This document shows, piece after piece, positions 3,901 through 59,532 of a DNA stretch of 64,000 bases. Below the pieces are notes generated by a model, which saw only the letters and a program-made list of their open reading frames with translations, was not told the origin of the DNA and did no database searches. Each line of letters begins with the position of its first letter. The first letter of the stretch is position 1. The DNA comes from Naegleria gruberi (lineage: Eukaryota): the NCBI GenBank assembly GCA_000004985.1, contig GG738904.1; one strand, given 5' to 3'. The position numbers and the translations under genes are program-made.

Positions 3901-6105
3901 NNNNNNNNNNNNNNNNNNNNNNNNNNNNNNNNNNNNNNNNNNNNNNNNNNNNNNNNNNNNNNNNNNNNNNNNNNNNNNNNNNNNNNNNNNNNNNNNNNNN
4001 NNNNNNNNNNNNNNNNNNNNNNNNNNNNNNNNNNNNNNNNNNNNNNNNNNNNNNNNNNNNNNNNNNNNNNNNNNNNNNNNNNNNNNNNNNNNNNNNNNNN
4101 NNNNNNNNNNNNNNNNNNNNNNNNNNNNNNNNNNNNNNNNNNNNNNNNNNNNNNNNNNNNNNNNNNNNNNNNNNNNNNNNNNNNNNNNNNNNNNNNNNNN
4201 NNNNNNNNNNNNNNNNNNNNNNNNNNNNNNNNNNNNNNNNNNNNNNNNNNNNNNNNNNNNNNNNNNNNNNNNNNNNNNNNNNNNNNNNNNNNNNNNNNNN
4301 NNNNNNNNNNNNNNNNNNNNNNNNNNNNNNNNNNNNNNNNNNNNNNNNNNNNNNNNNNNNNNNNNNNNNNNNNNNNNNNNNNNNNNNNNNNNNNNNNNNN
4401 NNNNNNNNNNNNNNNNNNNNNNNNNNNNNNNNNNNNNNNNNNNNNNNNNNNNNNNNNNNNNNNNNNNNNNNNNNNNNNNNNNNNNNNNNNNNNNNNNNNN
4501 NNNNNNNNNNNNNNNNNNNNNNNNNNNNNNNNNNNNNNNNNNNNNNNNNNNNNNNNNNNNNNNNNNNNNNNNNNNNNNNNNNNNNNNNNNNNNNNNNNNN
4601 NNNNNNNNNNNNNNNNNNNNNNNNNNNNNNNNNNNNNNNNNNNNNNNNNNNNNNNNNNNNNNNNNNNNNNNNNNNNNNNNNNNNNNNNNNNNNNNNNNNN
4701 NNNNNNNNNNNNNNNNNNNNNNNNNNNNNNNNNNNNNNNNNNNNNNNNNNNNNNNNNNNNNNNNNNNNNNNNNNNNNNNNNNNNNNNNNNNNNNNNNNNN
4801 NNNNNNNNNNNNNNNNNNNNNNNNNNNNNNNNNNNNNNNNNNNNNNNNNNNNNNNNNNNNNNNNNNNNNNNNNNNNNNNNNNNNNNNNNNNNNNNNNNNN
4901 NNNNNNNNNNNNNNNNNNNNNNNNNNNNNNNNNNNNNNNNNNNNNNNNNNNNNNNNNNNNNNNNNNNNNNNNNNNNNNNNNNNNNNNNNNNNNNNNNNNN
5001 NNNNNNNNNNNNNNNNNNNNNNNNNNNNNNNNNNNNNNNNNNNNNNNNNNNNNNNNNNNNNNNNNNNNNNNNNNNNNNNNNNNNNNNNNNNNNNNNNNNN
5101 NNNNNNNNNNNNNNNNNNNNNNNNNNNNNNNNNNNNNNNNNNNNNNNNNNNNNNNNNNNNNNNNNNNNNNNNNNNNNNNNNNNNNNNNNNNNNNNNNNNN
5201 NNNNNNNNNNNNNNNNNNNNNNNNNNNNNNNNNNNNNNNNNNNNNNNNNNNNNNNNNNNNNNNNNNNNNNNNNNNNNNNNNNNNNNNNNNNNNNNNNNNN
5301 NNNNNNNNNNNNNNNNNNNNNNNNNNNNNNNNNNNNNNNNNNNNNNNNNNNNNNNNNNNNNNNNNNNNNNNNNNNNNNNNNNNNNNNNNNNNNNNNNNNN
5401 NNNNNNNNNNNNNNNNNNNNNNNNNNNNNNNNNNNNNNNNNNNNNNNNNNNNNNNNNNNNNNNNNNNNNNNNNNNNNNNNNNNNNNNNNNNNNNNNNNNN
5501 NNNNNNNNNNNNNNNNNNNNNNNNNNNNNNNNNNNNNNNNNNNNNNNNNNNNNNNNNNNNNNNNNNNNNNNNNNNNNNNNNNNNNNNNNNNNNNNNNNNN
5601 NNNNNNNNNNNNNNNNNNNNNNNNNNNNNNNNNNNNNNNNNNNNNNNNNNNNNNNNNNNNNNNNNNNNNNNNNNNNNNNNNNNNNNNNNNNNNNNNNNNN
5701 NNNNNNNNNNNNNNNNNNNNNNNNNNNNNNNNNNNNNNNNNNNNNNNNNNNNNNNNNNNNNNNNNNNNNNNNNNNNNNNNNNNNNNNNNNNNNNNNNNNN
5801 NNNNNNNNNNNNNNNNNNNNNNNNNNNNNNNNNNNNNNNNNNNNNNNNNNNNNNNNNNNNNNNNNNNNNNNNNNNNNNNNNNNNNNNNNNNNNNNNNNNN
5901 NNNNNNNNNNNNNNNNNNNNNNNNNNNNNNNNNNNNNNNNNNNNNNNNNNNNNNNNNNNNNNNNNNNNNNNNNNNNNNNNNNNNNNNNNNNNNNNNNNNN
6001 NNNNNNNNNNNNNNNNNNNNNNNNNNNNNNNNNNNNNNNNNNNNNNNNNNNNNNNNNNNNNNNNNNNNNNNNNNNNNNNNNNNNNNNNNNNNNNNNNNNN
6101 NNNNN
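985..6105. other. Assembly gap (N run, about 5.1 kb)
   Basis: Contiguous n characters. All six-frame ORFs that span it are artifacts. Confidence 0.99.
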
Positions 6106-13723: not shown

Positions 13724-14153
13724 CCCTAACCCAAACCCAAACCCAAAGCCAAACCCAAACCCAAACCCAAACCCAAACCCAAGCCCAAACCCAAACCCAA
13801 ACCCAAACCCAAACCCAAACCCAAACCCAAACCCAAACCCAAACCCAAACCCAAACCCAAACCCAAACCCAAACCCAAACCCAAACCCAAACCCAAACCC
13901 AAACCCAAACCCAACCCAAACCCAAACCCAAACCCAAACCCAAACCCAAACCCAAACCCAAACCCAAACCCAAACCCAAACCCAAACCCAAACCCAAACC
14001 CAAACCCAAACCCAAACCCAAACCCAAACCCAAACCCAAACCCAAACCCAAACCCAAACCCAAACCCAAACCCAAACCCAAACCCAAACCCAAACCCAAA
14101 CCCAAACCCAAACCCAAACCCAAACCCAAACCCAAACCCAAACCCAAACCCAA
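13724..14153. repeat. Internal telomere-repeat tract (CCCAAA)n, about 70 units, in the same orientation as the terminal tract, with a degenerate proximal boundary
   Basis: It starts CCCTAACCCAAACCCAAA immediately after the gap. Variant units CCCAAAGCC and CCCAAGCCC occur. It decays into telomere-like remnants (aaacccaacg, aaaccctagcccaaaa) at 14154-14210. Confidence 0.9.
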
Positions 14154-15022
14154 ACTAAAAATAGAATTCTTCTAAACCCAACGTTCAAACCCTAGCCCAA
14201 AATTATAAACTTATTCAAATATCATTAAATTTTATATCATTCGATTGGAAATTATGAGTAGAACAACGTGGTATATTTAGTTTTTCAATTTATAAAATAT
14301 TAAATTTGTTAATAATGTCAGATTAAAATTTCATAAATGAAACTATAGGAAGAATGATAATTTCAAAATCGTTTAATGAGATTATATAGTCAATATCATC
14401 ATTAACAACATTCATAATCACTTTCATATGAAATTTCAAAGGTTCATGTCTGTAGATATAAAAGTATCAAGTGAAAAGGGAAGATGTGAGGTAAAAGAGG
14501 TCAACAATAACTTTTGAGTTTCTCATCAAAACATATTGAATCCTAATATGAAAATGTTCCATTTGATGATTAAACATCGAATATCAAATTTATTTTGACT
14601 TTCATATTTACAGATTTCTTCCCTCAATCACACATGGTCAACTTGTATGAAAAGGAGGAAATCTTGAAAAAGGACCACCTATTGAAACTTTACCATCATG
14701 ATGTAGATGATATATAATGATGTAGAATTCAATTTCATATCATAAGAATTAGAAATGGTACCATGGGAATGTAAATGTTGATTTTCCAAAGTTGACTGAN
14801 AGGAAAGACAAGTCAGACCAAGTCTATCAAATATATCACTTCAATCAACAAATTATACATGAAAATGCTCCATTCGATGNNNNNNNNNNNNNNNNNNNNN
14901 NNNNNNNNNNNNNNNNNNNNNNNNNNNNNCATGAGTGCAGAACTGAGTTATTCAAAATTTGTGAATGTTCGGTCCAGTCAAATCAAAGATGGGTTCTTAA
15001 CTACCCATAGGTTTGCATTCTT

Positions 15023-26353: not shown

Positions 26354-29300
26354 TTGGATTTCAACATGCAAGTTTCAGAACAACAAGTATCTGTAGTACT
26401 AACTCATCAACCACAATCATCATCAATATCTGAAGCGGATAATAATAATAATAATAATACCATTAACAATATAGATAATAATAATAATAGCAATAATAAT
26501 AATAATAATATAGAGGAAGATAATGATAATAATAATAATATTTACATGCTTTCATTCAATAATAGTGGATTAACACCTGCATTACCTGATCCGAGTCCTT
26601 CACCTCCACTTAAATCAACTGTTGCAGTAGTTGGTACATCATCACAACAACAAAACATGTCGAAATTATATTCCTCTCCTCCGAATAACATTAACAATCA
26701 ATTAGATTATTCACCAGTGAGGATTAGAACCATCAATTCGGCGACATTACCAACCAATAATAATATTAACAATAATAATGAAGACCGATCACTGATGATG
26801 ACAACAACAACATCTTCATCAACTGCACCTCCTCCACCTAGTTCTTATCAATATCCAATTCCAACAAGACCTACTACTACTAAATCTTCATCCGTGAATG
26901 AGAGTAATAATATGATGGAGGACAATTTCCCCAACACCATAGAAAGTAATGTGCGAACACAAGAACATTCCCAACAACAAACACACTACAAATCCTATCA
27001 TCACAATAATGAAAGAGAAGGAGAACGAGCTTCTTACTATCATCACTCCTATCCATCACAAAATTCCATAATGATGACAAATAATCATAATATCGAAAAT
27101 TGGAAAGGCTTGAAGGAAAACAGCAACAATCTATCATCCGCAGAAATTCAAAAAGAACAAGCGAACTTGGTTTACGGCACTCAATACCGCCAAAAGAATA
27201 GAAGTACACAACCACCTAGCAGCGCTTCTTACTTAGGATCAGTTGTTGAACGAGAAGAAAGAGGAGACGAAGAAGAAGAAGATTATCGTGTCTATCATCA
27301 TCAGCAACAACCACAGCAACAACAATATTTGAGAGAGAACTATTATCCTTCTCATCAGGGTAGTAGTACTACGTTGCCAAGCACTACTTCAATCTTGTTG
27401 CCAAGCCACGAAGCAAGGAATATCCAAAATTATAACAACCCTTCGCTACAAATAATTAATCAAAAGAATACCTCCACAAGTTCAACTTCACCTTCTTTAA
27501 ATTTTGCTACAGGTTCGTCTTCACAACAACCATTGCACGGAAGAAGAAATAGCAATTATCATCTGTACGATAATAATAACTATCACCAACAACACCAATA
27601 CGTGGAGAGAAATAATAACAATTTTCCAACAACTTCTCTCCATCAACGAACAACACCAACAACAATAGCAGAATATCAAGTTGGAGCTCCTAGTTATTCT
27701 AAACAAAGTTCAATGCAACAACAACCCTTTGTCATTCAGCCAAGTATGCAGCCCTCATCTGGAATACCGTCCTTTCACCAAGTTCACTCATCCTCCTCTG
27801 CCACCAATTCCTTCCATGTACCTTCCAATTATCAACAACATCATCATCATCAACCTCCACCACCACAACACTATCAACCACTTCCTCCGTCATCATCATC
27901 CTCATCAAATTATTTGAATCCTCCACACCAACAACAACAACAATCATCCTACTCTTCACCAAACAGTAACCAAACTAACTCATCCGAACCAAAATTACGT
28001 GTCTATAATTCAACATTAAAAGTTCCAGAAGGAATTTTTTCATACGATAACACAACACTAACTTGTGAACCTCATGGATTTAAGCCAAATGATAGAAGAG
28101 GAGCTCCACAAACAACTCACAGTGTCTACGTGAGTGATGTATTAGTAGTTACTTGTGATTTGGTTAACATGTCGAATCAACCAGGTGTTTTTCAAAATTG
28201 TACTGCGAGATTGGTTCATTTGATGGGAAAGAATGCTAAAAAGAAGAGAAAGGAAGGAGTCAGTGATCAAGATGATGGTTTAGACTCGGAGGATGATGAT
28301 TTGGATGATGGAAAGAAGAAGAAAAAGAAGAATAAGAAGAAGGATCAAGAAGATTCACTTGATGGTGATTTTGTTACTGATTTTTCACAGGCAGGAATGT
28401 TAGAGTCTTTTGAATTATTATCGGAACAACCTTGTCAAGAAAATGTTCAGAAAGGAAAGATTGTTTCCTCCCTCAAGGTTCCTCGTGTTAGGGGAAGAGA
28501 TTGTAAAACAAAGACTGGACAAATTCAAGTTATTAGATTTAAAGGAACAGAGAGAGAACATATTATTGCTGTGAGTGACTTGTTCTGGATAAGATCTAGA
28601 ACAAGAACAGAGATGGAAGTGAGAAAGTTCAAGAAACAACAGCAACAAACTCCACAACAATCATTGCCATCTCATCAACCACCTCAACAACAACCAATTT
28701 CTGTTCAATCACATGAAACTTCCAATCTTTCTTTGCATCATCATGCACAACAACTTTCTCATCCACCAACAATTCCATCTTCAAGTTTAAATCCTCCTCG
28801 TGAAAATTATCATAATCCACAATGGCCAAATATGCCAAATATTGTACAACCAAATTCACCAAGTACAAATGAGCATGCTGGTCTTCCTCCTAAAAAGAGA
28901 AGGAATAATAGTCCAGGAGGTGGTAATACACCAAACACTTATAGAGTTCCTTCAAATCCAGCTGCTTCAATTGTTCACTCATCAACAGGATATTTCCCCT
29001 CAAACAATATTCAACATCAAGAGAATGGTAAAGTACCAAATCTACACGATTCTCCTTCTCTTAGTCATCATCATCATCACGTGCCTTATCAACCATCGAG
29101 GAATGAACCAACTTATCATGAATTACTACAACGAGTTCACACATTAGAAGAAAAGTTGAATAGACTTGAAAGTAAATTGACTAGAGCTGGACATTTGTCA
29201 CCTGAGTTCCCAATGCCACCTGATAGTCAAACATTTTCTCCATTCCTCCCTAGTTCTGCAATTCAGCCACGTCCTGTTGAACCACCTAAAACTTTTGCAC

Positions 29301-29539
29301 CTTTCCCAATTGATGTTTTCATTAAAGACGATAAGAGAGGAGAAAACCCAACATTGCCTTCAGTGGTTTCGTCAGATTCCCAACCAGCAATTTTTAATCC
29401 AAAATCACCACTTCCAAGTTTCCCTTTTGATCCATCTGATTCATTCTTGAAGAATAGTTTCTCATCACCACCAGCTTTTACAAATCCAACATCGAGCAGT
29501 TCATCCGAGAGTGGAGGTGGCATGAAGAGAGAACGTTAA
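26354..29539 (+). CDS. Large N/Q/S-rich low-complexity protein with a unique central core (about aa 540-760) and a C-terminal coiled-coil segment. It may be a nuclear regulator.
   Basis: Uninterrupted ORF of 1061 aa with poly-N, poly-Q and Ser/Pro-rich tracts. The complex-sequence core is YNSTLKVPEGIFSYDNTTLTCEPHGFKPNDRRGAPQTTHSVYVSDVLVVTCDLVNMSNQPG...QVIRFKGTEREHIIAVSDLFWIRSR. It also has a KKKRK-like basic patch. Confidence 0.5.
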   Translation: MDFNMQVSEQQVSVVLTHQPQSSSISEADNNNNNNTINNIDNNNNSNNNNNNIEEDNDNNNNIYMLSFNNSGLTPALPDPSPSPPLKSTVAVVGTSSQQQNMSKLYSSPPNNINNQLDYSPVRIRTINSATLPTNNNINNNNEDRSLMMTTTTSSSTAPPPPSSYQYPIPTRPTTTKSSSVNESNNMMEDNFPNTIESNVRTQEHSQQQTHYKSYHHNNEREGERASYYHHSYPSQNSIMMTNNHNIENWKGLKENSNNLSSAEIQKEQANLVYGTQYRQKNRSTQPPSSASYLGSVVEREERGDEEEEDYRVYHHQQQPQQQQYLRENYYPSHQGSSTTLPSTTSILLPSHEARNIQNYNNPSLQIINQKNTSTSSTSPSLNFATGSSSQQPLHGRRNSNYHLYDNNNYHQQHQYVERNNNNFPTTSLHQRTTPTTIAEYQVGAPSYSKQSSMQQQPFVIQPSMQPSSGIPSFHQVHSSSSATNSFHVPSNYQQHHHHQPPPPQHYQPLPPSSSSSSNYLNPPHQQQQQSSYSSPNSNQTNSSEPKLRVYNSTLKVPEGIFSYDNTTLTCEPHGFKPNDRRGAPQTTHSVYVSDVLVVTCDLVNMSNQPGVFQNCTARLVHLMGKNAKKKRKEGVSDQDDGLDSEDDDLDDGKKKKKKNKKKDQEDSLDGDFVTDFSQAGMLESFELLSEQPCQENVQKGKIVSSLKVPRVRGRDCKTKTGQIQVIRFKGTEREHIIAVSDLFWIRSRTRTEMEVRKFKKQQQQTPQQSLPSHQPPQQQPISVQSHETSNLSLHHHAQQLSHPPTIPSSSLNPPRENYHNPQWPNMPNIVQPNSPSTNEHAGLPPKKRRNNSPGGGNTPNTYRVPSNPAASIVHSSTGYFPSNNIQHQENGKVPNLHDSPSLSHHHHHVPYQPSRNEPTYHELLQRVHTLEEKLNRLESKLTRAGHLSPEFPMPPDSQTFSPFLPSSAIQPRPVEPPKTFAPFPIDVFIKDDKRGENPTLPSVVSSDSQPAIFNPKSPLPSFPFDPSDSFLKNSFSSPPAFTNPTSSSSSESGGGMKRER

Positions 29540-30122
29540 ATGAAGTGAAATAAAAAATTAATTGTAAATTCAAATATGAAAATTGAAGTTTAGTTTGTAA
29601 TATGTTTGAGAATCCAACAAGTTCAAAGATATTAATGGTCCTTCCACCTTGTGTGTCATGTACTCTAGTGTAAAAAAATCAAAAAGGCTGTGTGAAAAGT
29701 GAGCTTAACTTTACAACATGTGATCGTTCAATGCGTGCGTACGATCTCCGATCTATTGAGAAGAAACCAGTTGTTGAAAATTGCAAACTTGAAGATTTAA
29801 CGTTTCGAAAAAAAATTCATGAGTAGTAACAAGTAGGCCGCTAATTTGCTTGCTAGAAAAGACTCTGATCACACACTATGTAAGTCATCATTCTTAAATA
29901 TCTTGGCAAGATATTAATTTCTACATTTCACCAATTTGCTTGTAAAAATTTACAAATTGCAATTTTAATGATCCAATGATAATAATAATGATCATCATCC
30001 GATACCTAATTAACTTGATCATATTAATACTACCATGATCATCAATGATGATATTGTACACTTTGTATGCAAATTGTCGTGATGAAAAATCTTGTCAAAC
30101 ACTTTTGGATTAATTTCCAAAT

Positions 30123-32723
30123 ATGGACTCTTTAATATTGGTCCTTTTTCTTGCATTACTCTCTGTGTTGATCGTCACCAAAACACTCAATTGGTTCTTT
30201 CTCTATCAACATTCCATTCAATATTGCATTTCCTCTCCTTTCTTAACCCAATTGACCAAAATCTTGAAAAAATCGATGAAATTTCTTATTGGGCTCTTGT
30301 TGTTCTTTGTTTGTTATTCGTGGTATTCTTCTTTCAAAATACTTGCCATTGCTCCGAATGAAAACTTTGAAAAATCCTTGCAATATCGGAATGCTTCCTC
30401 TTTCCAATTTCATATCAAATCTTCCATCCTTGCTGCTTGTCTAAATTCCCACCACTCTAACAATGCAAATACTTGCAAATCTTCCTCCACTCATAACCAT
30501 CGTGCTGATGTTAATGATGCTGAACCAATTTTTGAACTTTCCTGTCGTTGCACAACTTTAAATCCGATGAATAATGATCCTTCTCTCACCACCAAAAACA
30601 ACCTCGACCAAATATTGCAACAATACCAAAATTCATTGACTTTGGACTCCCCGAATCAATCGACCACCCCCAACTACTACGGCTCTTGTTCTGTTACTGA
30701 CAATCGTGATGATGATGCTTCTGGTGCTTCTTCCTCTGCTTCTTCCTCTGCAACTGCTACCTTGATTAATACCAACCAAAATAGTACTAAAAACTCTCTC
30801 AAAGAAGTAGAAGAAAAAACAACAACTCCCTCCAAACAACTCTTAGAAATAATGAATAAGAACGACTTGTATGCACTTGCTCCAAATCACTTCCTCTACA
30901 ATCCAATGTTGAATAAGGATACCGCATTCACAGTGGAGGATCGTGAAAAATTGGGTCTTCGTGGATTGTTGCCACCACACGTTGAGACCATTACTCATCA
31001 ATTGGTGAGATGCTTGAGACAATTCCGTAACTTTAAAAATCCATTGGACAAGTATGTTTACTTGATGAGTTTGCAAGGTAGAAATCAAACCTTGTTCTTT
31101 AAATTGTTGATTGATAACATGGTTGAAATGTTGCCAATTGGTAAGTTGATGATAATAATTTTGCATTCCAAAGTTTTTAACACATTCTCTCTCATCTGTG
31201 TGAAATTTACTTGTTATTTTGCTTAATACAAATAATAATGCTTCGGAACCACCACAACAAAACACAACATTCATTTACCACTCTTTTTAACATTATAAAC
31301 AGTCTACACACCAACTGTTGGTGATGCTTGTCTTCAATTCGACCAAATTTGGAGAGTTGCTCAAGGCATGTACATCTCATTGGAAGATAAGGGATCAATT
31401 TCTGCAATTTTGAAGAATTGGGAACCAAAGCAACCAGATATTATTGTCGTTTCCGATGGTTCACGTATTTTGGGTCTTGGTGATTTGGGTGCTAATGGTA
31501 TGGGTATTCCAATTGGTAAATTGAATCTCTATGTTGCTGCTGCTGGTTTCCATCCAGATAAGACTTTGCCAATTTGCATTGATGTTGGTACTAACAATCC
31601 AGGATTGTTGGAAGATGATTTATATTTGGGATTGAAGAGAAAGCGTGTTCGTGGACAAGAATTCTTTGATTTCATGAAGGAATTTATGATTGCTGTCAAG
31701 ACTACATGGCCAAATTGTTTAGTCCAATTCGAAGATTTCTCAAATGATGTCTGTTTCGATTTATTGGATCAATATCGTAATGAACAATTGTGTTTCAATG
31801 ATGATATCCAAGGTACTGGTGCTGTCATTGTTGCTGGTTTCATCAATGCTGCCAAGATTACTGGTAAGAGAACTTATCAACACAAATTATTATTTATGGG
31901 AGCTGGTTCTGCTGCCACTGGTGTCGCTGATCAATGTGTTGGTGTCATGAAATTGCAAGCTGAAGAAGATGGATTGAGCAAGGAAGAAATTGATGCCATG
32001 TCTGAACATTGGGTTTATTTGGTCGATTCTAAGGGATTAGTTACACAAACTCGTTCTGATTACGAAGAAATGCCACATCACAAGAAGAAGTATGCCAAGA
32101 AGGGTGATGAAACTTTGGGTAACTTCCAATCCAAATCTCTTTTGGAAATTGTTCAAAAGACTCAACCAACTGCTCTCATTGGTCTCTGTGGTCAATCTGG
32201 TGTTTTCACTCAAGATATCATTGAAGAAATGGCCAAGATTAACCAAAAGCCAATCGTTTTTGCCTTGTCCAACCCAACTAAGAATTCTGAATGTACTGCC
32301 AAGGAAGCTATTGAATATTCAAGTGGAAGAGCTATCTTTGCTTCTGGTTCTCCATTCGAAGATGTTACTTACAATGGAAAGACTTATCAATTGAGTCAAG
32401 GTAACAATTTGTACATTTTCCCAGCTTTGGGTCTTGGTGCTGTCGTTACCAGATCAAAGCACGTTTCTGATGTTATGATTTTGAGAGCTGCTCAAACTTT
32501 GGCCGATCTCACAAGCCAAGATAGATTGGACAATGGATTGTTGTATCCAAGTTTGACAAATATCAGAGAAATTGCTCAAAAGATTGCTGTCCAAGTTGGT
32601 AAACAAAGTGTTAAGGAAGGTCTTTCTCAATTGACTGAAGAACAATTACCAAAATCTGAAGAAGAATGGGTTAAAATTGTTAAGGATTATGTATATACTC
32701 CAGATTATGAGTCCAAATTGTAA
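30123..32723 (+). CDS. Malic enzyme (NAD(P)-dependent malate dehydrogenase, decarboxylating) in 2 exons: ?-31140 and 31303-32723. The annotated start at 30123 is the start of the open frame; the true start is uncertain.
   Basis: Hallmarks: LYNPMLNKDTAFTVEDREKLGLRGLLPP...EMLPI|VYTPTVGDACLQFDQIW...GSRILGLGDLGANGMGIPIGKL...FEDFSNDVCFDLL...FNDDIQGTGAV...GAGSA. The intron is GTAAGT...ACAG (31141-31302) with phase 1 conserved. Confidence 0.8.
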
Positions 32724-33081
32724 ATATTTCAACAATTAATTTAAACCAACTATTATAAACATTTAATATTTCACTGATATTATTTCACACACTTTCAATA
32801 TATTCTCCATTCCAATCGCAACAGCGTCCAACCATACTCAATTCTGTCCAATTCTATCTAAATGCAACCTGAGGATCTCCTTCACAACCAAGCGCATCAA
32901 CCAAACACTAGTCCGACCAGCACTACGATCCTAGTGCACTTCAATTAATATCATGTCATGAAATCTCTCCACCGTATTACTTTTAAACAAAAAGAAAAAA
33001 AATCTCCAATTGTTAACTGTACAAATCTTTCATCTTTTTCCGAAAGTTAGAGAATAATTTGAAAGAGAAGGTGAACACAAA

Positions 33082-34095
33082 ATGACTAGTCAAGAGAGTA
33101 ATGATGGATCAATTTCCTATGGATGGTGGATTGCCACTCTTTTAATAGGAATTGTCCTGATGAGAATATTGCAATTAATTATGAAATTGAAAAGACAAAT
33201 AAGCAAGGCTGGTGGAACTCCTGGTTATTGGCAATTATTGGCTGAAGGCTTGTTTATCATGCCAATTCTTTCGCCCTATATTGCTCATGGTAATTTCCCA
33301 GTGATTCAAGGATTGATTGCTAAGGAGGAAGAGAGAGCTAAGGGAAGTGATGAAAAGCAATTGATTATTCGTGTCAGTACTCCCTATAGAAATAATTATG
33401 TAATTTGGGATAAGGATTCAGTGAAGGAAGTTTTAGTTACAAAATCATCATCCTTTCCAAAACCTTTGGATTTTTATGAACCTTTCAATATTTTCGATAA
33501 GGATGCTACTTCAATTTTGACAGCTGCCGATGGTCCAGTTTGGAAGAATCATAGACATGTGGTGGCTCCTTCATTCTCAACTGGTAATTTGGTTTTTATG
33601 AGTCAAGTGACTGTAAAGACAGTTGATGCATTGTTTAGAACAAAGTGGAATAAGTTATTGGACCAGGATAGTAAGGGATTCATTATGGATATGGAAGATA
33701 CTACAGCTGTCACTCTTCAAATTATTGGTGAAAGTGGATTTGGTATGGATTTTGGTGTTTTCGATGAAACTAGCTCTGATTCTAAAAAGTTTAGAGAAGC
33801 ATTGAATATTGTCGTGAGAGTTGACTATTATGCCAGATTCTTCCTTGCTAAAATCCCATTCCTTTACAATGCAGTTTCTGATTATACTGGAAATACAGAA
33901 GCTCTCAAGGTGATGAGTGAAAAGCTTGAACAATGCATTTCTCAAAGAGTAGCCGAATTCAAACAAGATCCAGAAAAACCAATGAATGATTTATTGTCGC
34001 TCCTTGTTAAGGCAAACATGATGGATGAAAAACTCACACTCAATGAATTGAAGAGTAACAGTTACATCTTCGTAGTTGCAGGTCATGAGTATTGA
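33082..34095 (+). pseudogene. Cytochrome P450, N-terminal half only. It ends at the I-helix ...FVVAGHE and then Y-stop because an insertion follows.
   Basis: N-terminal membrane anchor plus P450 fold up to AGHE (I-helix AGHETT). It is a paralog of the N-half of the P450 at 55239-56286 (shared ...SDAYIFS/VVAGHE). The reading frame hits TGA at 34093-95, right after CATGAG. Confidence 0.6.
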
Positions 34096-34618
34096 AAATC
34101 AGAAGGTGTTCTTAAAGATGGTCACTGGTGCCATCAATGGTTTGATTCGTGGATTTTGGTTAAAGATATTATTCCACTTGAAGAACATTCTTCAATTATT
34201 AGGAGATGTTACAGCATGCTATGTGGAAAGTACCGTTAATATTTCCAAAGATATTTTGGAAATGTACAGTTTCATAATGAAGGAATCATTTTTGGAAAGA
34301 TTAAATTCAAGAATTGAGGAGAGAAATCTTTTATGTATTGATTTTGAAATTGTTAACAATGGATTGGTAGATAGGAATGCAGAGTGTTTTAACTCATGGT
34401 ATGAAAATGTATCTAAACATCTTATTGATTGGTCAAGTAAGGCTGTAAGTAATCGATTTGCAGAGTTTACAGAGTTAGTGGATGAAATTTTTGGTCAAGT
34501 TAAGAATGATTATGCAATGATTGCTGATAAAACTATTGAAAAGAGAACAATGGAGTATAATTTTATTACTGAAAAGAAGAGAAGATTGACAGAATTGATC
34601 AAAGAGTTAAAAAAGTAG
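34085..34618 (+). CDS. Hypothetical protein of 177 aa, predicted helical. Its ATG is embedded in the P450 His-Glu codons (cATGag).
   Basis: ORF MSIENQKVFLKMVTGAINGLIRGFWLKILFHL...RLTELIKELKK in frame +2 relative to the P450. I recognise no domain. Confidence 0.3.
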   Translation: MSIENQKVFLKMVTGAINGLIRGFWLKILFHLKNILQLLGDVTACYVESTVNISKDILEMYSFIMKESFLERLNSRIEERNLLCIDFEIVNNGLVDRNAECFNSWYENVSKHLIDWSSKAVSNRFAEFTELVDEIFGQVKNDYAMIADKTIEKRTMEYNFITEKKRRLTELIKELKK

Positions 34619-34639
34619 ATTGGTAATGAGTAAATTGAA

Positions 34640-35060
34640 TTGTGTCTGTGCAATTCTGATTGTATTCTTGTAAAGTGGTGATGGTACCTGTCAGGTACCG
34701 TCACAGGTACTTGGCAGGTACGATTTTTACCATCACAGGTACCGTCACAGGTACTTGGCAGGTATCACAGGTACCATCAGGTACCATCAGGTACCATCAC
34801 AGGTACCGTCACAGGTGCAAATGGTACCTGACAAGTACAATCACAGGTACCGTCACAGGTATCTGAATTTCCTCACAGGTACCATCACAGGTACTTGGCA
34901 GGTATCACAGGTACCATCACAGGTACCATCACAGGTACCGTCACAAGTACTTGGACCATCACAAGTACCCTTACAAGGACTTGTAAGGTGCTCAACACGT
35001 ACCTACAGTGTCTGACAAGTATGGTACCTCACAATAACCATCACAGCTACAACAAACACC
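34640..35060. repeat. Imperfect tandem minisatellite, about 20 units of CACAGGTACC(A/G)TCA or CAGGTACTTGG, each centred on a KpnI palindrome GGTACC. It begins with an inverted unit that can form a hairpin.
   Basis: Repeated caggtaccatca and caggtaccgtcacaggtacttggcaggtat. At 34676-34710, tgatggtacctgtca is the reverse complement of tgacaggtaccatca. It lies between the convergent 3' ends of ORF 34085-34618 and gene 35100-36299. Confidence 0.85.
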
Positions 35061-35099
35061 ATAACAAATACTTTTTATATCTCCTCCAATCAACTATAT

Positions 35100-36299
35100 T
35101 TATTTGAAATATTTGGATTTCTTAATAGGTCTATGGACATTATGATCATTTTCTGAATCAGAACTAATACCACCTCTATCTGAAGAATCTTCTTCAACAT
35201 CTTCTTCTTCATCATCCTCTTCAACTTCACAATGATCAGCATTTCCAAAGCAAATATTGTACCAAATTGGAGGACCTTCATCAGACTTGTTACAATCATC
35301 TTTATCCATTTGCTTTTCAAAGAATAACTCCATTTCAAAGGCATCAAGTTCTTCATTCAATTGAATAACATCCTTAACAGGTGGTTCTATGATGGCTTCC
35401 TCTTCAATATAACCATTCTCATTGTAACGATTGATGAGAAGAACTGTTTCCTTTGAGGTGTCAAATATCTCTTCTTCCTCCTTCTCATTAAAATCAATAC
35501 TTTCATCATCTGCTATAGTTGCAGATTCCTTCTTTTCATACTCCACAATTAAATTCAAACCACTAACATCTGGTTTGATTACAAGACTGGAAAGCGTGTC
35601 TTCATTTAGAGATGGCAAATCATCATATGGGAAAACAATACTTTGAGTTTCACTAACGGATGAGTATCCATCTTGATCTGCTCTAGCCATTTCGACAGAA
35701 TCATCATCAGTGAGTGCATCATCTTCTGTTAGAATCAATGGTTCATTAAATACATCAACTTGTTCTTCCATCTGAGTTTCTGCACTTGATATAATCAATA
35801 AAGGTTGAACCAATTCATATCTCTCATTGGTGTAAGAGTAAAGGTCAATGTCATCATTGTTTAATAACAAGTTTAACAATGTTGAATTACTAGTCTGTGA
35901 AAGCACTTTTCCCTTCTTACTAAACTCTCCAACAAATGCTTGGAAATTGAATTCACTATTACATTGTTCCAACTCTTTGAAATAAATCAAAGAAGGGTTC
36001 ATTTCAAGTAAATCTGCCAAATCTTCTAATTTACTATCCATGGATAAAAAGTCATCATGCTTCTTCTCCTTAAAAATCAAAAGTAAGAGACAAAGTGCAA
36101 AATAATCACAAGAGTAATCTGCTGATAATCCATTAATATCATCTTGATTGATAGGATCGTTACCAAGCCAAAAAGATGTCAATTCCTTCCTTAGCTTGAT
36201 ATCCAAATAACAGAAATCACTGACAACTTCACTATAAAATTTCTTCTTTACTAATTCTTCTACTAAACACCACTTGTTGAAATATGTATTGTACAACAT
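35100..36299 (-). CDS. Hypothetical acidic (D/E-rich) protein of 399 aa, divergently transcribed from the Myb-LAGLIDADG gene
   Basis: Uninterrupted ORF MLYNTYFNKWCLVEELVKKKFYSEVVSDF...EEDDEEEDVEEDSSDRGGISSDSENDHNVHRPIKKSKYFK. I recognise no domain. It shares a 345-bp promoter region (36300-36644, containing (AT)8 and CACAC..CTCGAG..GTGTG) with the downstream + gene. Confidence 0.45.
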   Translation of the reverse strand: MLYNTYFNKWCLVEELVKKKFYSEVVSDFCYLDIKLRKELTSFWLGNDPINQDDINGLSADYSCDYFALCLLLLIFKEKKHDDFLSMDSKLEDLADLLEMNPSLIYFKELEQCNSEFNFQAFVGEFSKKGKVLSQTSNSTLLNLLLNNDDIDLYSYTNERYELVQPLLIISSAETQMEEQVDVFNEPLILTEDDALTDDDSVEMARADQDGYSSVSETQSIVFPYDDLPSLNEDTLSSLVIKPDVSGLNLIVEYEKKESATIADDESIDFNEKEEEEIFDTSKETVLLINRYNENGYIEEEAIIEPPVKDVIQLNEELDAFEMELFFEKQMDKDDCNKSDEGPPIWYNICFGNADHCEVEEDDEEEDVEEDSSDRGGISSDSENDHNVHRPIKKSKYFK

Positions 36300-36644
36300 G
36301 ATGGATTATTCCTTTTTTTTCAAAAACAAAAGCTTTCACACAACCTCGAGTCGTGTGAAATGTCTCACACTCTAATATTTTAATATTTTTATAAGGCTTG
36401 AATATATATATATATATATTGAAAAGGGATTGACCGAAACTGGAAGACACATTAATTGGATATCTAAAGAGACCAAACAAATTTTCCTCAGAATTGAAGA
36501 GTCACGTCGCTACGTCCCTCAAGACATCCACACAACTTTGCAAATTAATACAATTGAGAAAAAAAAACTACTTTTATTTTCGACTCAACTTTGTTACAAG
36601 TAACAACACACATCAAATTCCAACACAGAACTCAATATAGCAGA

Positions 36645-38966
36645 ATGATAAGAAAAAACTGGTTAAAAGAAGAAGAAGATCTTTTGGTCAAATTGGTAAA
36701 GGAAAAAGGCCACAATTGGACTGAAATTGCTCCCAACTTCGATGTTACTCCAAATGCCTGCCACAAAAAGTATAAGGATTTGTTAAAGAATCTTGGCAGG
36801 AAAAGATCGTTCTGGACTGATGAAATGAAAGCTAATCTCCTTAAATTAGCAAAAGAATATGCCGATAAAGGAATAGAGAAATGGAAGATTATTGAGGAAA
36901 AATTAGGAAAAGAAGCTAAAGCTTGCCAACAGCATTTTTATTATTTAGTCAAACAGCACGGGTTGGATTCTAATGATTTCAACAGCGTCAGACCATTTTG
37001 GACCATGGAAGAGAAGCGCGAATTGACTGAGTTAGTCAATTTGCATGGAAGGAAGTGGAAGAAAATTGAGAAACTAATTAGCTGCAACAGAGATGCTCAT
37101 TCTTGTCAGAGCCAGTTTATGCTATTAGAAAGTAGACAGAATGATCCAATTGAAAAGAAGTTGAACGATATCTTTCAAGCAACGACTTCAGAGACAGATT
37201 TGAATGAAATCTCTCTTTACGAATTCTTCAATATCCCAACAAGTAGATACAATGGGGTTCCAGCATCGACTTTGTTGGTGGATCAAGCAGATGAAGTTGA
37301 TGAAGAAACATTTCATCGTTCTTACATGGCTGGAGATACTGAATTTAGTGTACGTGAGGTTGCAACTGGTAGATTGGTCAGAAAAACCATTGAGGAGATT
37401 TATCTTTCCAGTGGAACATATGAAACATATAGTATTGAATCTGGATTTAATGTGGAAGAAATTGGTAAGTTTCGTTTCAATTACTATTTTCAAAGAATAA
37501 TAATAATGAAAGAATGTAAATTGTTTCCAGCAAATGAAGTATTAGAGTTGAGTGCTACTTGTTTCAAAGCAAAATTATATTTCAATGAATGTGCTCGAAT
37601 TGTTGAAGAGAAACGTTTCATATTTTCCGAACAAGTTCAAGTCCGTCCAGATGAGTGCAGTAGTGTGAGATTACCTGTATCAGATCTTCAAGACAATATG
37701 TTCATCATTAATAACTATCAATTGAAATCCAAGGAAAAGCTTGTAAGAACATCATTACCATGTGGTCAACTTACTGACACCACCCAAACAAAAGAATGTA
37801 AGTATTTTATGAATTATTCTCATAATATTTTAAAGATTTTGACATTTTGTTCAGAACTTTCCCAACTCTAGTTGACTCCAAAGACAAACAGGGAGTCATG
37901 GTTCAACTATTGGGAGCCTATTTAGCAGATGGTGATGGAGGATACTTTAAATTGTATTTTAATGCCAAAAATGAGCAAGAACTTACCTATTATTTTACAG
38001 ATTTCTTAAAAGAAATTTGTGAATTGAATTCAGAGACAATAAGAGAGGATCTTAAATTCAAGAAAGAGGAAGAGTATGTCACCATTAAGCTCAATGATAA
38101 GAATGCTGACAAGGATATTGAACGAGTCTTACAAAATGGTTATCAAATATCCGGGTCCATACTTGTTGCACCTGCATGGTATGTTTTTCACTTTCAATAC
38201 ATTTTTACTAGTAACAAATAGTACTGGCTTACACAGATTTTTAAAAGAAATAGAATTGTTATGTAATAAGTATAATGGCAGTTACCAAACTAGAAAGAAT
38301 TTCTCTTCCATCTTCAACATTACAAATTTTGGTATGTTTAGCTTGTACAAATTTTTCGAAGGTTCTGTACAAGGAGATGGCACATTAGAGAGTAATCGTG
38401 TAACGTTTGGTCAGAATTGTTCAATTTCAGATACTCACCAACAGTACTTTAATCAGGTCCACCATTGTGCAACCATGCTTGGGTTAAAGACTGGCGTGGG
38501 TAAAGTGTGTGAAGAAACTACAGGTTTGAAAATGACTGGTAAGAACATGACCATTTTTGAAAGTGAAGGACTTGAGAAAAAGAAAGTAAATGCAGATGTT
38601 GTGTTTAGACCATTTAATCTTACAGTTCAAAGATTAATAGGTGAATCAATGAAGAAGATGTACTGTTTCAAGAAGAGTAATCACTCCTTCCCAATGTTTA
38701 ATGGAATGATAGTGCAAAATGTTGATACTGATCTAGTTTCTGCTAAAATATGTTATGGGAATAGATGGGAAATTCGTGAAATGGACAACTATGAATCTGC
38801 TGCCACTTTCTGCTTGAAGAAATATATTGCTTCCTTAGGGTTTCCAAGTGACCGTATGACAAGAAATGCTGTAAGAAGATTAATACTAAAAATAGAAGGA
38901 ATAGTATCTGTTAAAAGAAAGCAAAAATCAAACAAGGAATCAAACAAGAAAGTTAAAACACAATAA
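36645..38966 (+). CDS. Fusion protein with three N-terminal Myb/SANT-type repeats and a C-terminal two-motif LAGLIDADG endonuclease-like domain. Exons: 36645-37464 (or read-through), 37531-37801, 37855-38178, 38222-38966.
   Basis: Myb repeats: WLKEEEDLLVKLVKEKGHNWTEIAPNF..Y, FWTDEMKANLLKLAKEYADKGIEKWKIIEEKL..F, FWTMEEKRELTELVNLHGRKWKKIEKL..F, with W-x18-22-W-x18-(Y/F) spacing. LAGLIDADG motif 1: VMVQLLGAYLADGDGGYFKLYF (37907-37945). Motif 2, about 130 aa later: SLYKFFEGSVQGDGTLESNRVTF (about 38352-38390). Introns: GTAAGT..CAG (37465-37530, in-frame and optional), GTATTT..TTCAG (37802-37854), GTATGT..ATAG (38179-38221, short). Confidence 0.5.
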
Positions 38967-39085
38967 CATTTCAATTAAAGAATATATTTACTGAACTTTA
39001 TTAAATGACTTTTTATTTCTGAATAAACAAAAGTATATTGAGCACTTTTGCATCCATTTGAAAATTGACAATCATTTCTGCTGAA

Positions 39086-39162
39086 ATGGTCATGTAAGAA
39101 GTATGAATTATGTCATTCTGGAAACTCTTCGTATTCATCCACCTGTAACATGTGTTTAGAGT
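39086..39162 (+). pseudogene. Degenerate P450 K-helix fragment (..NGHVRSMNYVILETLRIHPPVTCV*) just inside the right end of the insertion
   Basis: ETLRIHPP matches the P450 ExxR / HPP K-helix consensus. MNYV matches the paralog at 56520-56560 (IMNYVNAVIMET), not the adjacent C-half (MDYIHGCVMECLRLHPPV). It is out of order for a P450, which runs I-helix then K-helix. Confidence 0.45.
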
Positions 39163-39178
39163 TGCTAAGAAGACAACC

Positions 39179-39842
39179 ACATGAGGTTCGTGTTTTATAA
39201 TTAATTTTACAAGTGTTTAACAAAATATTTAAGACGACTGCCACAACCATGCAATGGTTAATGTACGAATTGTCCAAGCGTCCAGAAGCTCAACAAAAGG
39301 CCAGAGAAGAAGCAATCAGAATTGGAGGAGGTGACAATGTTTTGAGAGCTCCAGATTTTGATGATTACAACAATATGGACTATATTCATGGTTGTGTAAT
39401 GGAATGCTTACGTCTCCATCCACCAGTCGTTTCCATGGTAAAAACCTGTGCCAAATCTACCAAAATTGGAAAAACAAGCATTCCAAAGGGATCTTGCATC
39501 TATGTAAATGCCAAGGCCTGTCACTTGTACGGTGAAGATTTTAACACCACTGAATTTACTGGTGCTCAATTCGCTCCAGAAAGATTTTTGGATAAGGATT
39601 TCAAACAAAAGGTTCAAACAAGTGGAGCATGGTTCCCATTCAATATGAGTAATAGAAAATGCATTGGTTACATGTTTGCCCAAATTGAATTGTGTATCAT
39701 GTTGTGTAGAATGTTGCAATTTTATGAATTCAAATTGTTGAATGATGAAAGTAAACCAGCTGAGAAGGTTGAAGATCTTCCTGGTATTACCTTTAGACCA
39801 TCTTCTAATTTGAAGGTTTTGGTAACAAGAAGAACAAAATAA
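39179..39842 (+). CDS. Cytochrome P450 C-terminal half. A 7-nt micro-exon ACATGAG (39179-39185, the His-Glu of AGHETT) is followed by a GTTCGT..TTTAAG intron (39186-39233) and exon 39234-39842 (TTATTMQWLMYEL...heme loop FPFNMSNRKCIGYMFA).
   Basis: Contains ECLRLHPP (ExxR), PERF and FxxxxxRxCxG (FNMSNRKCIG). Together with 33082-34089 it would form a complete P450 if the insertion were absent. Confidence 0.6.
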
Positions 39843-56928: not shown

Positions 56929-57579
56929 TTTCGAATACAATTTTGTAAATAGTAAAAATAAATAAAATAATTTAATTCATAATATTGTTGATGATACAGT
57001 GGAGGTTGAAAATGCAATTACAAGTTGTGGTTGTTTGAAAATTTATGGAGCTTGTCAGAGGGTAAATACTGACATGTACAGTTGACAAGATCTTGAGTAA
57101 TAATGAAGATCTTTTGGAGTTTAGAATCAATTTTGTTAACACTTACAATTGGATGTTTCTCATCCTCTTCGATCTGAGCTTTACAGCAAGTAATATTTCC
57201 AAAAATAGCTATTGTTTGCAATGTTAAAAAAATTAATGAGACACATTTTCGATATTTTGTTTAAAATTACCTCAAATGCAAGGTGGAAAAACAAAATTAT
57301 TTCTTTTAAGGTCTAAGTGTTTCATAATATGTCTGTTGCCAACAACCTGCCAATCCACTACAAATTAAATCTGCACAGCTTTTGAAAATAACATTTTGCG
57401 TCTAAACCACACGCCCCAACAAAAAAAATGCAACAAACAAGAATGCTTCACTCATCACCCAACCATTCCCACAACACCAACAACAAAAAAATCACAATAT
57501 TAATTCATCATGAGCAAAGGTATAAACAAATCATCAGTAAGTAACCATATAAACAAGTACTCTAATAATTATAAAAGAA

Positions 57580-58389
57580 CACTAAGAAGAAAACTAACAC
57601 CAAGACAACTGTGAAGAAAACCAACACCAAGAACACTGTGAAGAATACCAATACCAAGAACACTGTGAAGAACACTGTGAAGAACACCAATAAGAAGAAT
57701 ACCATCAAAAAGAAGAATCCAAAGCGTAAGTGTTATTGTTATTTATTAATTTACTAACATTGTTAATAGTTGCTCGGGAAGTTGTCAATTACACAACTGT
57801 GAATGCCAAATGGTTCCTTTATGCTCCAACCACCACCGAAAGTGGTTTCAAAGCTACATTTATTCCAGTCAGTGGTCCATTTAACAGAGTTGAAGAAATG
57901 AAACGAGTTGCTTGTTTGCAAATGTTTTGTGAAAGTTGTGCTATAACTTTGGGTTTTTATTTGGATCCAAGTATGTTCAAAAGATTTCAAACTGGTATTC
58001 GTATTGCATCATTGAAACCTGAATGGTTCTCTCATTATTTCGAGTCATGTGGTGGAAAAATGAAAAACAGAGTTCAATATATTCGTTACAATGGTCACAG
58101 TTTGAGTATTACTTGTCCTTCTTATGAATTCTATGGTTTGGAAAATATGCCACCTTTGAATTGTAATGGTAGTTATGCAAGCACGGTTTTTCAAGTTTCC
58201 CAACCAATATTGATGAACCATCCATTTCAACCACACTTTAAATGGATTGAACAGTGGAAATTTGTTTACAGATTGTATTTCTCTAAACTCGTATTTATAT
58301 GCAATCCAGTAACGAATATGGTTTCAGTAGATTTGGAATTTACAAAGGATGTACAAAGTATGGATTGTACTGGTTTCCAAATTGTTTAA
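57580..58389 (+). CDS. Hypothetical protein. An upstream exon encodes K/T/N-rich 7-aa repeats (DNA 21-bp tandem repeats, 57580-57724), then intron 57725-57771, then main exon 57772-58389. The start codon was not resolved.
   Basis: Open frame KNTKKKTNTKTTVKKTNTKNTVKNTNTKNTVKNTVKNTNKKNTIKKKNPK, then GTAAGT...TACTAAC..AATAG and LAREVVNYTTVNAKWFLYAPTTTESGF.... The 21-mer is ACCAAGAACACTGTGAAGAAT, 4-5 times. Confidence 0.4.
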
Positions 58390-58966: not shown

Positions 58967-58971
58967 GAAAA

Positions 58972-59532
58972 ATGACTCAAACTTCTTCATCAACAGCAGA
59001 AACATCTACAGAAACCTCGGAAGTTCCAAACAACACATCAACCAAAACACCATCAACAACACCATCAAAAACACTATCAAAAACATCAACCAAAACACCA
59101 TCAAAAACATCAACCAAAACACCATCAAAAACACCAAGAAAAACACCAAGAAAAACACCAAAAAAAACACCAGCAAAGAAATCTGCAAAAAAACCATTCA
59201 CAGGAGGAATTAAAAAGCCACACAGATATAGACCAGGTACTGTAGCTTTAAGAGAAATCCGAAAGTATCAAAAAAGCACTGAATTATTGATAAAAAAAAA
59301 ACCTTTTTGTAGGTTGGTGAGAGAAGTTGCTCAAGATTACAAATCTGATGTTAGATTTCAAGCGAATTCACTCCTTGCACTTCAAGAAGCAGCTGAGGCA
59401 TTTATTATTGATATTTTTGAGGATACTAATCTTTGTGCCATTCACTCCAAAAGAGTTACTATTTTGCTCAAAGATATGCAACTTGCATTAAGAGTAAAAG
59501 GTGTTAATTATATTGGTTTATTAAATAAATAA
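58972..59532 (+). CDS. Histone H3 variant with a canonical histone fold and a long divergent T/S/P/K-rich N-terminal tail built from TPSKT repeats
   Basis: Histone fold: [97 protein letters not shown]. The tail: [45 protein letters not shown]. Confidence 0.8.

Follow-up and report, generated by a model that had tools for sequence, protein, structure and literature searches.

The window analyzed here, a stretch of 64,000 nucleotides (nt) from Naegleria gruberi NEG-M, carries a cytochrome P450 gene that is split by an insertion, and the insertion contains a tandem array built around the KpnI palindrome GGTACC (table 1). The contents of the insertion were found to be, in order, an open reading frame (ORF177), the array, a gene for an acidic orphan protein of 399 amino acids (aa), a gene that joins Myb repeats to LAGLIDADG-like motifs, and a decayed P450 fragment. 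A gap of 481 nt separates the stop codons of the convergent ORFs 34085–34618 (plus strand) and 35100–36299 (minus strand), and the array lies in this gap, 590 bp inside the left boundary of the insertion and 4.2 kb from its right boundary. As a preliminary description of this DNA had held, it is placed between two 3' ends and is not a promoter. A terminal repeat or other end structure of a mobile element was also considered; the array is not at the element boundaries. The preliminary description had also raised a replication or recombination site of the element as a candidate role; here, too, the position of the array is internal rather than terminal.

Table 1. Features of the Insertion and of the Array, in Window Coordinates (L020 Is One of the Comparison Copies Described in the Text)
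Feature	Position	Strand	Remarks
Insertion carrying the array	34089–39233	none	5145 bp; splits cytochrome P450 gene; empty-site allele
ORF177, left neighbor, 3' end toward the array	34085–34618	+	No family match; seven indel events in L020
Unique spacer, from ORF177 stop to array head	34619–34678	none	91.7% identical to L020
Homogeneous core of the array	34679–34975	none	About 20 CA[G/A]GTA-headed units; blocks of 32, 44, and 108 nt
Head palindrome TGATGGTACCTGTCAGGTACCGTCA	34679–34703	none	First unit inverted with respect to the second; 12-bp hairpin stem
Second inverted unit ATGGTACCTGACAAGTACAATCAC	34821–34844	none	Part of the 108-nt block (inverted unit itself 34821–34835)
Decayed array tail, toward the 399-aa gene	34976–35060	none	Units still recognizable: CAAGTA, GGTACC at 35023
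399-aa acidic orphan gene, right neighbor, 3' end toward the array	35100–36299	−	NAEGRDRAFT_73306
Myb/LAGLIDADG-like gene NAEGRDRAFT_73307	36645–38966	+	Three Myb repeats, then two LAGLIDADG-like motifs

All copies compared with the window came from one metagenome sample and belong to a related strain. L018 is a contig of the ENA assembly ERZ929261 and L019 is its Logan counterpart, while L017 and L020 are short contigs from the same ENA sample, which were reached via the protein clusters of the neighboring genes. In the window, Pfam recognized the N-terminal 60% of a cytochrome P450 at 33082–34095 and the remainder at 39213–39842, and the insertion point falls between the Glu and Thr codons of the conserved I-helix motif, with AGHE to the left of the junction and TTATT to the right. 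We found that L018 and L019 match the window at 28093–34088 (98.1% identity) and then continue directly at 39234–39661 (98.8%). They encode an uninterrupted P450 (...IAGHETTATT...), and the empty site lies around positions 5950–6070 of L018. Given this empty-site allele, the insertion is real, and the claim that the array lies inside one was borne out. The boundaries are not those of a canonical GT..AG intron; therefore, the P450 gene is broken in the window copy. Immediately to the left of the junction, a patch of 24 nt (34065–34088) shows 10 differences from the empty-site allele, most of them synonymous (ATCTTCGTAGTTGCAGGTCATGAG vs. GTCATGGTTATTGCCGGCCACGAA), the preceding 6 kb being 98.1% identical. 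This patch has the look of a co-conversion tract or of part of a paralogous P450 that arrived with the insert. At its right end (39090–39233), the insert consists of a decayed fragment of a different P450, in which the K-helix sequence ILETLRIHPPV is followed by GSCFIINF and which contains stops and a frame shift. This suggests another P450 gene as the site from which the segment was copied.

The long ORFs of the window are closed by all three standard stop codons, so the standard genetic code applies. A ciliate origin and a ciliate code, which had been suspected from CCCAAA telomeres, were ruled out by these stop codons and by the proteins, which are those of N. gruberi. The (CCCAAA)n runs lie at 1–302 and 13724–14155 (50 and 72 copies) in the same orientation, and between them are N gaps of 5.1 and 6.2 kb plus an island of 1.4 kb. 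They represent either joined small telomeric scaffolds or an interstitial telomere tract, and they fit TTTGGG, the candidate telomere of N. gruberi (PMC3622300).

The status of ORF177 as a gene is doubtful: it is not in the protein collection as such, and its sole relative is a copy broken by seven indels (L020, 60–596). In L020, an open frame enters the ORF177 homolog from unrelated upstream sequence. The 399-aa ORF is identical to N. gruberi EFC38866 (NAEGRDRAFT_73306, on a scaffold of 297,120 bp); a second copy, EFC46778 (NAEGRDRAFT_65339, on a scaffold of 573,072 bp), has 99% identity to it. When its 3' part (35100–35360, minus strand) was compared with L017 (529–789), 13 nucleotide differences were found in 261 nt (87 codons including the stop), and the changed codons comprised 12 nonsynonymous and 0 synonymous ones, a pattern that indicates relaxed or diversifying selection. 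The homology in L017 ends at about codon 302, and the L017 copy looks truncated. Next to the array, a block of 65 nt (35061–35125) comprises the last codons of the 399-aa gene and its 3' flank, including ATATAAAAAG. It is 100% identical in three copies except for a 2-nt indel in L020, the neighboring DNA being 92–96% identical; the block may be a candidate 3'-end signal, three copies being too small a sample to judge.

The Myb/LAGLIDADG-like gene consists of exons at 36645–37464, 37531–37797, 37836–38178, and 38222–38966, separated by introns at 37465–37530, 37798–37835, and 38179–38221. A second copy (NAEGRDRAFT_47624, 95% identical) lies on another scaffold, beside the other copy of the 399-aa gene. 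A search of 5.8 billion proteins gave no homolog of NAEGRDRAFT_73307 outside N. gruberi, and a PDB sequence search with its protein gave no relative; the AlphaFold model was unusable (pLDDT 31). Its LAGLIDADG-like motifs are LLGAYLADGDG and FFEGSVQGDG (Pfam LAGLIDADG_3, E 0.12). The protein is a putative endonuclease at motif level only, these two motifs being the sole basis of the assignment.

The array itself comprises 22 tandem units at 34679–35060, each headed by CA[G/A]GTA and mostly 9–12 nt long, with a few longer ones. The units were counted by cutting the region before every CA[G/A]GTA, which gave lengths of 12, 11, 21, 12, 11, 9, 10, 10, 12, 32, 12, 12, 20, 12, 11, 9, 12, 12, 12, 18, and 54 nt. 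Tandem Repeats Finder (TRF) reported overlapping arrays at 34683–34950 with periods of 10 (4.2 copies, 93% matches), 12 (20–23 copies), 32, 44 (5.4 copies, score 206), and 108 nt (1.8 copies, score 249), and the units are grouped into higher-order blocks of 32, 44, and 108 nt. By both procedures, the KpnI-palindrome repeat of the preliminary description is real. All 11 occurrences of CAGGTACC in the window and both occurrences of GGTACCTG belong to the array, which also accounts for 14 of the 17 GGTACC sites; CACAGGTACC occurs 8 times (0.03 expected), and the consensus 12-mer, with at most two mismatches allowed, was found 14 times in the array versus 4 times in the remaining window. Constancy is greatest in the hexamer CAGGTA, of which the core has 18 copies, and the tails of the units vary in length.

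The center of the array is homogeneous and its edges are decayed. Of the interval 34640–35060 that had first been assigned to it, the core and the decayed tail stood, while 34640–34678 proved to be unique spacer. The G+C content of the core (48.8%) exceeds that of the window (34.2%) and of the remaining insertion (32.6%), in agreement with the earlier remark that the array is unlike its AT-rich surroundings. The other longer tandem arrays of the window, telomeric repeats aside, have periods of 12, 15, 24, 27, and 48 nt, all multiples of three, and are probably coding repeats, unlike the KpnI-site array. Tandem arrays of the window were observed, for instance, at 57575–57714 and at 59035–59197, the second within the ORF 58969–59532.

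The inverted head with its hairpin, also predicted beforehand, was recovered. Relative to the later units, the first one (34679, TGATGGTACCTGTCA) is reverse-complemented, and as single-stranded DNA the head forms a stem of 12 bp with a loop of 3 nt (centroid −10.4 kcal/mol; z −3.6), a fold that none of 200 shuffles equaled. L020 also has a head-to-head junction at the same edge of the array. A third inverted unit, which is degenerate, lies at 35021, and an extra copy of a block related to that of the second inverted unit is present in L017. A fold-back palindrome, AGAAAGTGTTCTTAccatcTTTAAGAACACTTTCT, was observed at 84–118 of L020, where the window copy has ordinary sequence; it is a mutation of the template-switch type, and a mutation of this kind could also have made the reversed units of the array.

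Transcribed from either strand, the array folds far better than shuffled sequences (z −10.8 and −7.2), and it fills the whole gap between two facing 3' ends. Both observations would suit a role at the RNA level, in which convergent transcription across a self-complementary repeat gives rise to hairpin or double-stranded RNA, either stopping polymerases or silencing the segment through RNA interference. However, a repeated palindromic core yields strong folding of both strands automatically. Moreover, the flanking ORFs look weakly constrained or decayed, all 12 changed codons of the 399-aa gene being nonsynonymous and ORF177 having suffered its seven indels in L020, and convergent transcription itself is therefore unproven. 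We regard this explanation as very unlikely.

The other copies of the segment were informative about how the array changes. L017 contains the last 86 codons of the 399-aa homolog and then the same array (96% identical to the window), with one extra block of 44 nt, GGTACCTGTGATGTTCCTTGTCAGGTACCATTTGTACCTGTGAC. L020 spans the whole interval, from the broken ORF177 homolog (seven indel events) through a complete but shorter array to the end of the 399-aa gene; its gap of 358 nt holds 10 units, versus 22 units in 481 nt in the window. L017 and L020 are unlike each other; therefore, that strain has at least two copies of the segment, as the reference has. Three versions of the array are thus available, always with ORF177-like sequence on one side and the 399-aa gene, its 3' end facing the array, on the other, and their common landmarks include CAGGTATCTGAATTTCCTCACAGGTACC and the reversed unit next to ORF177. 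The array core is the most variable stretch between copies (nine gap events, 87% identity in aligned columns), and ORF177 together with the spacer is 92–93% identical.

It had been proposed that the units might co-occur with other copies of the insertion. This was indeed observed: L017 and L020 share the same neighbors, and no array was found elsewhere. Units scattered without any link to the element were not seen, every occurrence found having the same neighbors, although such co-occurrence is also expected of a passenger. Scans of a viral collection and of JGI metagenomes for CAGGTACCRTCACAGGTAC gave single chance matches only and no array. The bacterial metagenome contig L011, which carries a Thr/Gly-rich coding repeat, was examined as a candidate relative and rejected as unrelated. 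Literature searches on Naegleria combined with minisatellite or LAGLIDADG, and on PRJEB11402, returned nothing relevant.

A coding origin was considered in view of the commonest minus-strand unit, TGTGA(T/C)GGTACC, which reads Cys-Asp-Gly-Thr with a synonymous T/C difference. The array could then be a relic or cryptic exon of a minus-strand (Cys-Asp-Gly-Thr)n protein, maybe an extension of the 399-aa gene into ICYGVCCSCDGYCE. The insert AAAAATCGT in one unit, which measures 9 nt, and the open condition of stretches such as SPCKGTCDGPSTCDGTCDGTCDGTCDTCQ are in keeping with this. The array also resembles coding tandem repeats (Cys-rich or Thr/Gly-rich linkers) in that its 12-nt unit reads C-D-G-T on one strand or T-G-T-I/V on the opposite one, and bacterial L011 uses nearly the same DNA words for its Thr/Gly-rich stretch. 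Unlike coding tandem repeats, however, the array keeps no frame. The C-D-G-T reading changes frame about eight times in 350 nt, stops occur in all three minus-strand frames, and neither the unit lengths (9, 10, 11, 12, 20, and 32 nt) nor the blocks (32 and 44 nt) are consistently multiples of three. Even the frameshifting variants of 9, 10, and 11 nt recur within the blocks of 32 and 44 nt, the 11-nt unit CAGGTACTTGG occurring three times in this way; therefore, the expansion of the array went on regardless of any frame. Some differences between array copies would replace Cys by Phe or Thr by Ile, which likewise speaks against a coding role.

Searches for a product pointed in the same direction. 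A conceptual peptide with the frame repaired matched no protein at E ≤ 0.001 among 5.8 billion sequences, the N. gruberi proteome included, and Pfam contains no family for this peptide or for the plus-strand ORFs of the array. Exact-sequence look-ups of the ORFs that a gene caller might call inside the array gave no match. Two ways of rescuing a frame were examined and rejected. Splicing of tiny introns would have to restore the Cys-rich frame, but the introns of the neighboring gene (38–66 nt, starting with GTAAGT or GTATGT) have no fit in the array. Joining the 399-aa gene to ICYGVCCSCDGYCE by readthrough or by an intron encounters two stops, a poor candidate donor, and a 2-nt deletion in L020 that breaks the linking frame; the putative continuation (FK-stop-I-stop-LIGGDIKSICYGVCCSCDGYCE) would need both stops to be skipped. 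As for RNA genes, the sole match of the array in Rfam 15 was snoZ182, which scored 21.8 bits (E 0.61; gathering score 80), and a tRNA search of the array found none. The array is non-coding, and descent from a repeat protein appears extremely improbable.

The presence of a Myb-domain gene inside the same insertion raises the question of binding sites. The array might be a row of sites for the Myb protein with three repeats, whose gene lies 1.5 kb away, or for a host factor, and hence a cis site of the segment, for example tethering the protein to its own copy or acting as a barrier or terminator between the convergent genes. The array was found with this segment alone, its palindromic GGTACC core would suit a dimeric binder, and the CAGGTA core stays constant while the tails vary, as in a row of binding sites, although this constancy rests on only a handful of independent mutational events. 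The sites of c-Myb are YAACNG, and telomeric repeats are bound by Myb-type proteins. Arrays of Myb sites resemble the present array in being tandem short motifs beside a Myb-domain gene. Unlike them, it contains no telomere-type TTTGGG and no YAACNG on either strand of its 382 nt, compared with 2.35 per kb in the remaining window. The unit is also missing from the promoter region shared by the 399-aa and Myb genes and from the remaining insertion, where the sole near-match is a 12-mer with two mismatches at 34125, and the number and order of units differ between copies. The recognition helices of this Myb protein, as read from its sequence, are unlike those of c-Myb; its target is therefore not predictable. 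Taken together, a row of binding sites seems rather unlikely.

The targets of LAGLIDADG homing endonucleases measure about 18–22 bp and are often pseudo-palindromic, and the target of a homing enzyme is the uninterrupted insertion site. The near-perfect palindrome of 25 bp at the head of the array has about the right size for such a target. On the other hand, the array has no significant similarity to the empty site, which reads GCCGGCCACGAA followed directly by ACTACTGCCACA in L018: the best local alignment of the 50-nt empty site with the array scored 11, and 40 of 300 shuffles scored as well. Besides, the two-motif layout of the LAGLIDADG-like protein would suggest an asymmetric target, unlike the palindromic head. 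The suggestion that the array is a binding site for the Myb or endonuclease protein thus gained no support, with no YAACNG, no likeness to the empty site, and no unit elsewhere in the element.

A broader functional reading may be built on the same protein. In that case, an undescribed segment that copies itself into conserved gene sites would use the array as a functional cis element, with the array serving as a landing pad for the Myb/LAGLIDADG-like protein and marking or organizing the donor copy in recombinational repair. The array is segment-specific, every copy seen has retained it, and the empty P450 site was verified, with a patch of mostly synonymous change beside the junction, all of which would be in line with such a role. 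We consider a landing pad very improbable.

We hypothesized that the array is an ordinary non-coding minisatellite that travels as a passenger with a multi-copy N. gruberi segment of about 5 kb, its unit number drifting in each copy, and this is probably the correct explanation. Its units are arranged head to tail far above chance expectation, its copy number varies, and it contains neither a reading frame nor a structured RNA gene. The tandem structure, the higher-order blocks, the lack of a frame, the linkage to the segment, and the gain and loss of blocks between copies were all directly observed, whereas we infer from these observations that the array arose by slippage and unequal exchange and that it has no function. 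Among the options raised at the outset, that of a minisatellite generated by slippage was supported by unit lengths that are not multiples of three, by re-amplified frameshift variants, and by a block number that varies among the three copies.

Classical G+C-rich minisatellites are the variable-number tandem repeat loci of vertebrates and yeasts. The array is like them in its units of about 10–12 nt arranged head to tail, its G+C content above that of the flanks, its homogeneous center and decayed edges, its higher-order blocks, and the gain or loss of whole blocks between copies. It is unlike them in that a 6-bp palindrome (GGTACC) forms the core of the unit, that two or three units are reversed and give it hairpin potential, and that it is part of a repeated 5-kb segment rather than a single chromosomal locus.

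The following course of events would account for these features. A short stretch with the GGTACC palindrome may have served as the seed, the head-to-head pair GGTACCTG-T-CAGGTACC (34683–34699) being the probable one, and replication slippage would have lengthened it. Small deletions inside units would then have shortened them from 12 nt to 11, 10, or 9 nt, and unequal exchange would have gained and lost blocks of 32, 44, and 108 nt, re-amplifying the deletion variants. The array would be copied along with the segment, its unit number drifting independently in each copy. Nevertheless, the array was kept in three copies that differ by 4–8%, one of them with a decayed ORF neighbor, and it could have been kept for a reason.

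By itself, the array matters little, being at most a length-polymorphic marker for strains of N. gruberi and for copies of the segment. Its value is indirect: the surrounding 5.1 kb were shown to be a genuine insertion with an empty-site allele, and this element is more interesting than the array. The segment is present at least twice per genome in two strains, and it carries a gene that joins Myb repeats to LAGLIDADG-like motifs. If the protein proves to be an active nuclease, the segment would be a rare example of a homing-like element that occupies a nuclear protein-coding gene in a free-living protist, and the array would be a convenient signature for finding further copies.
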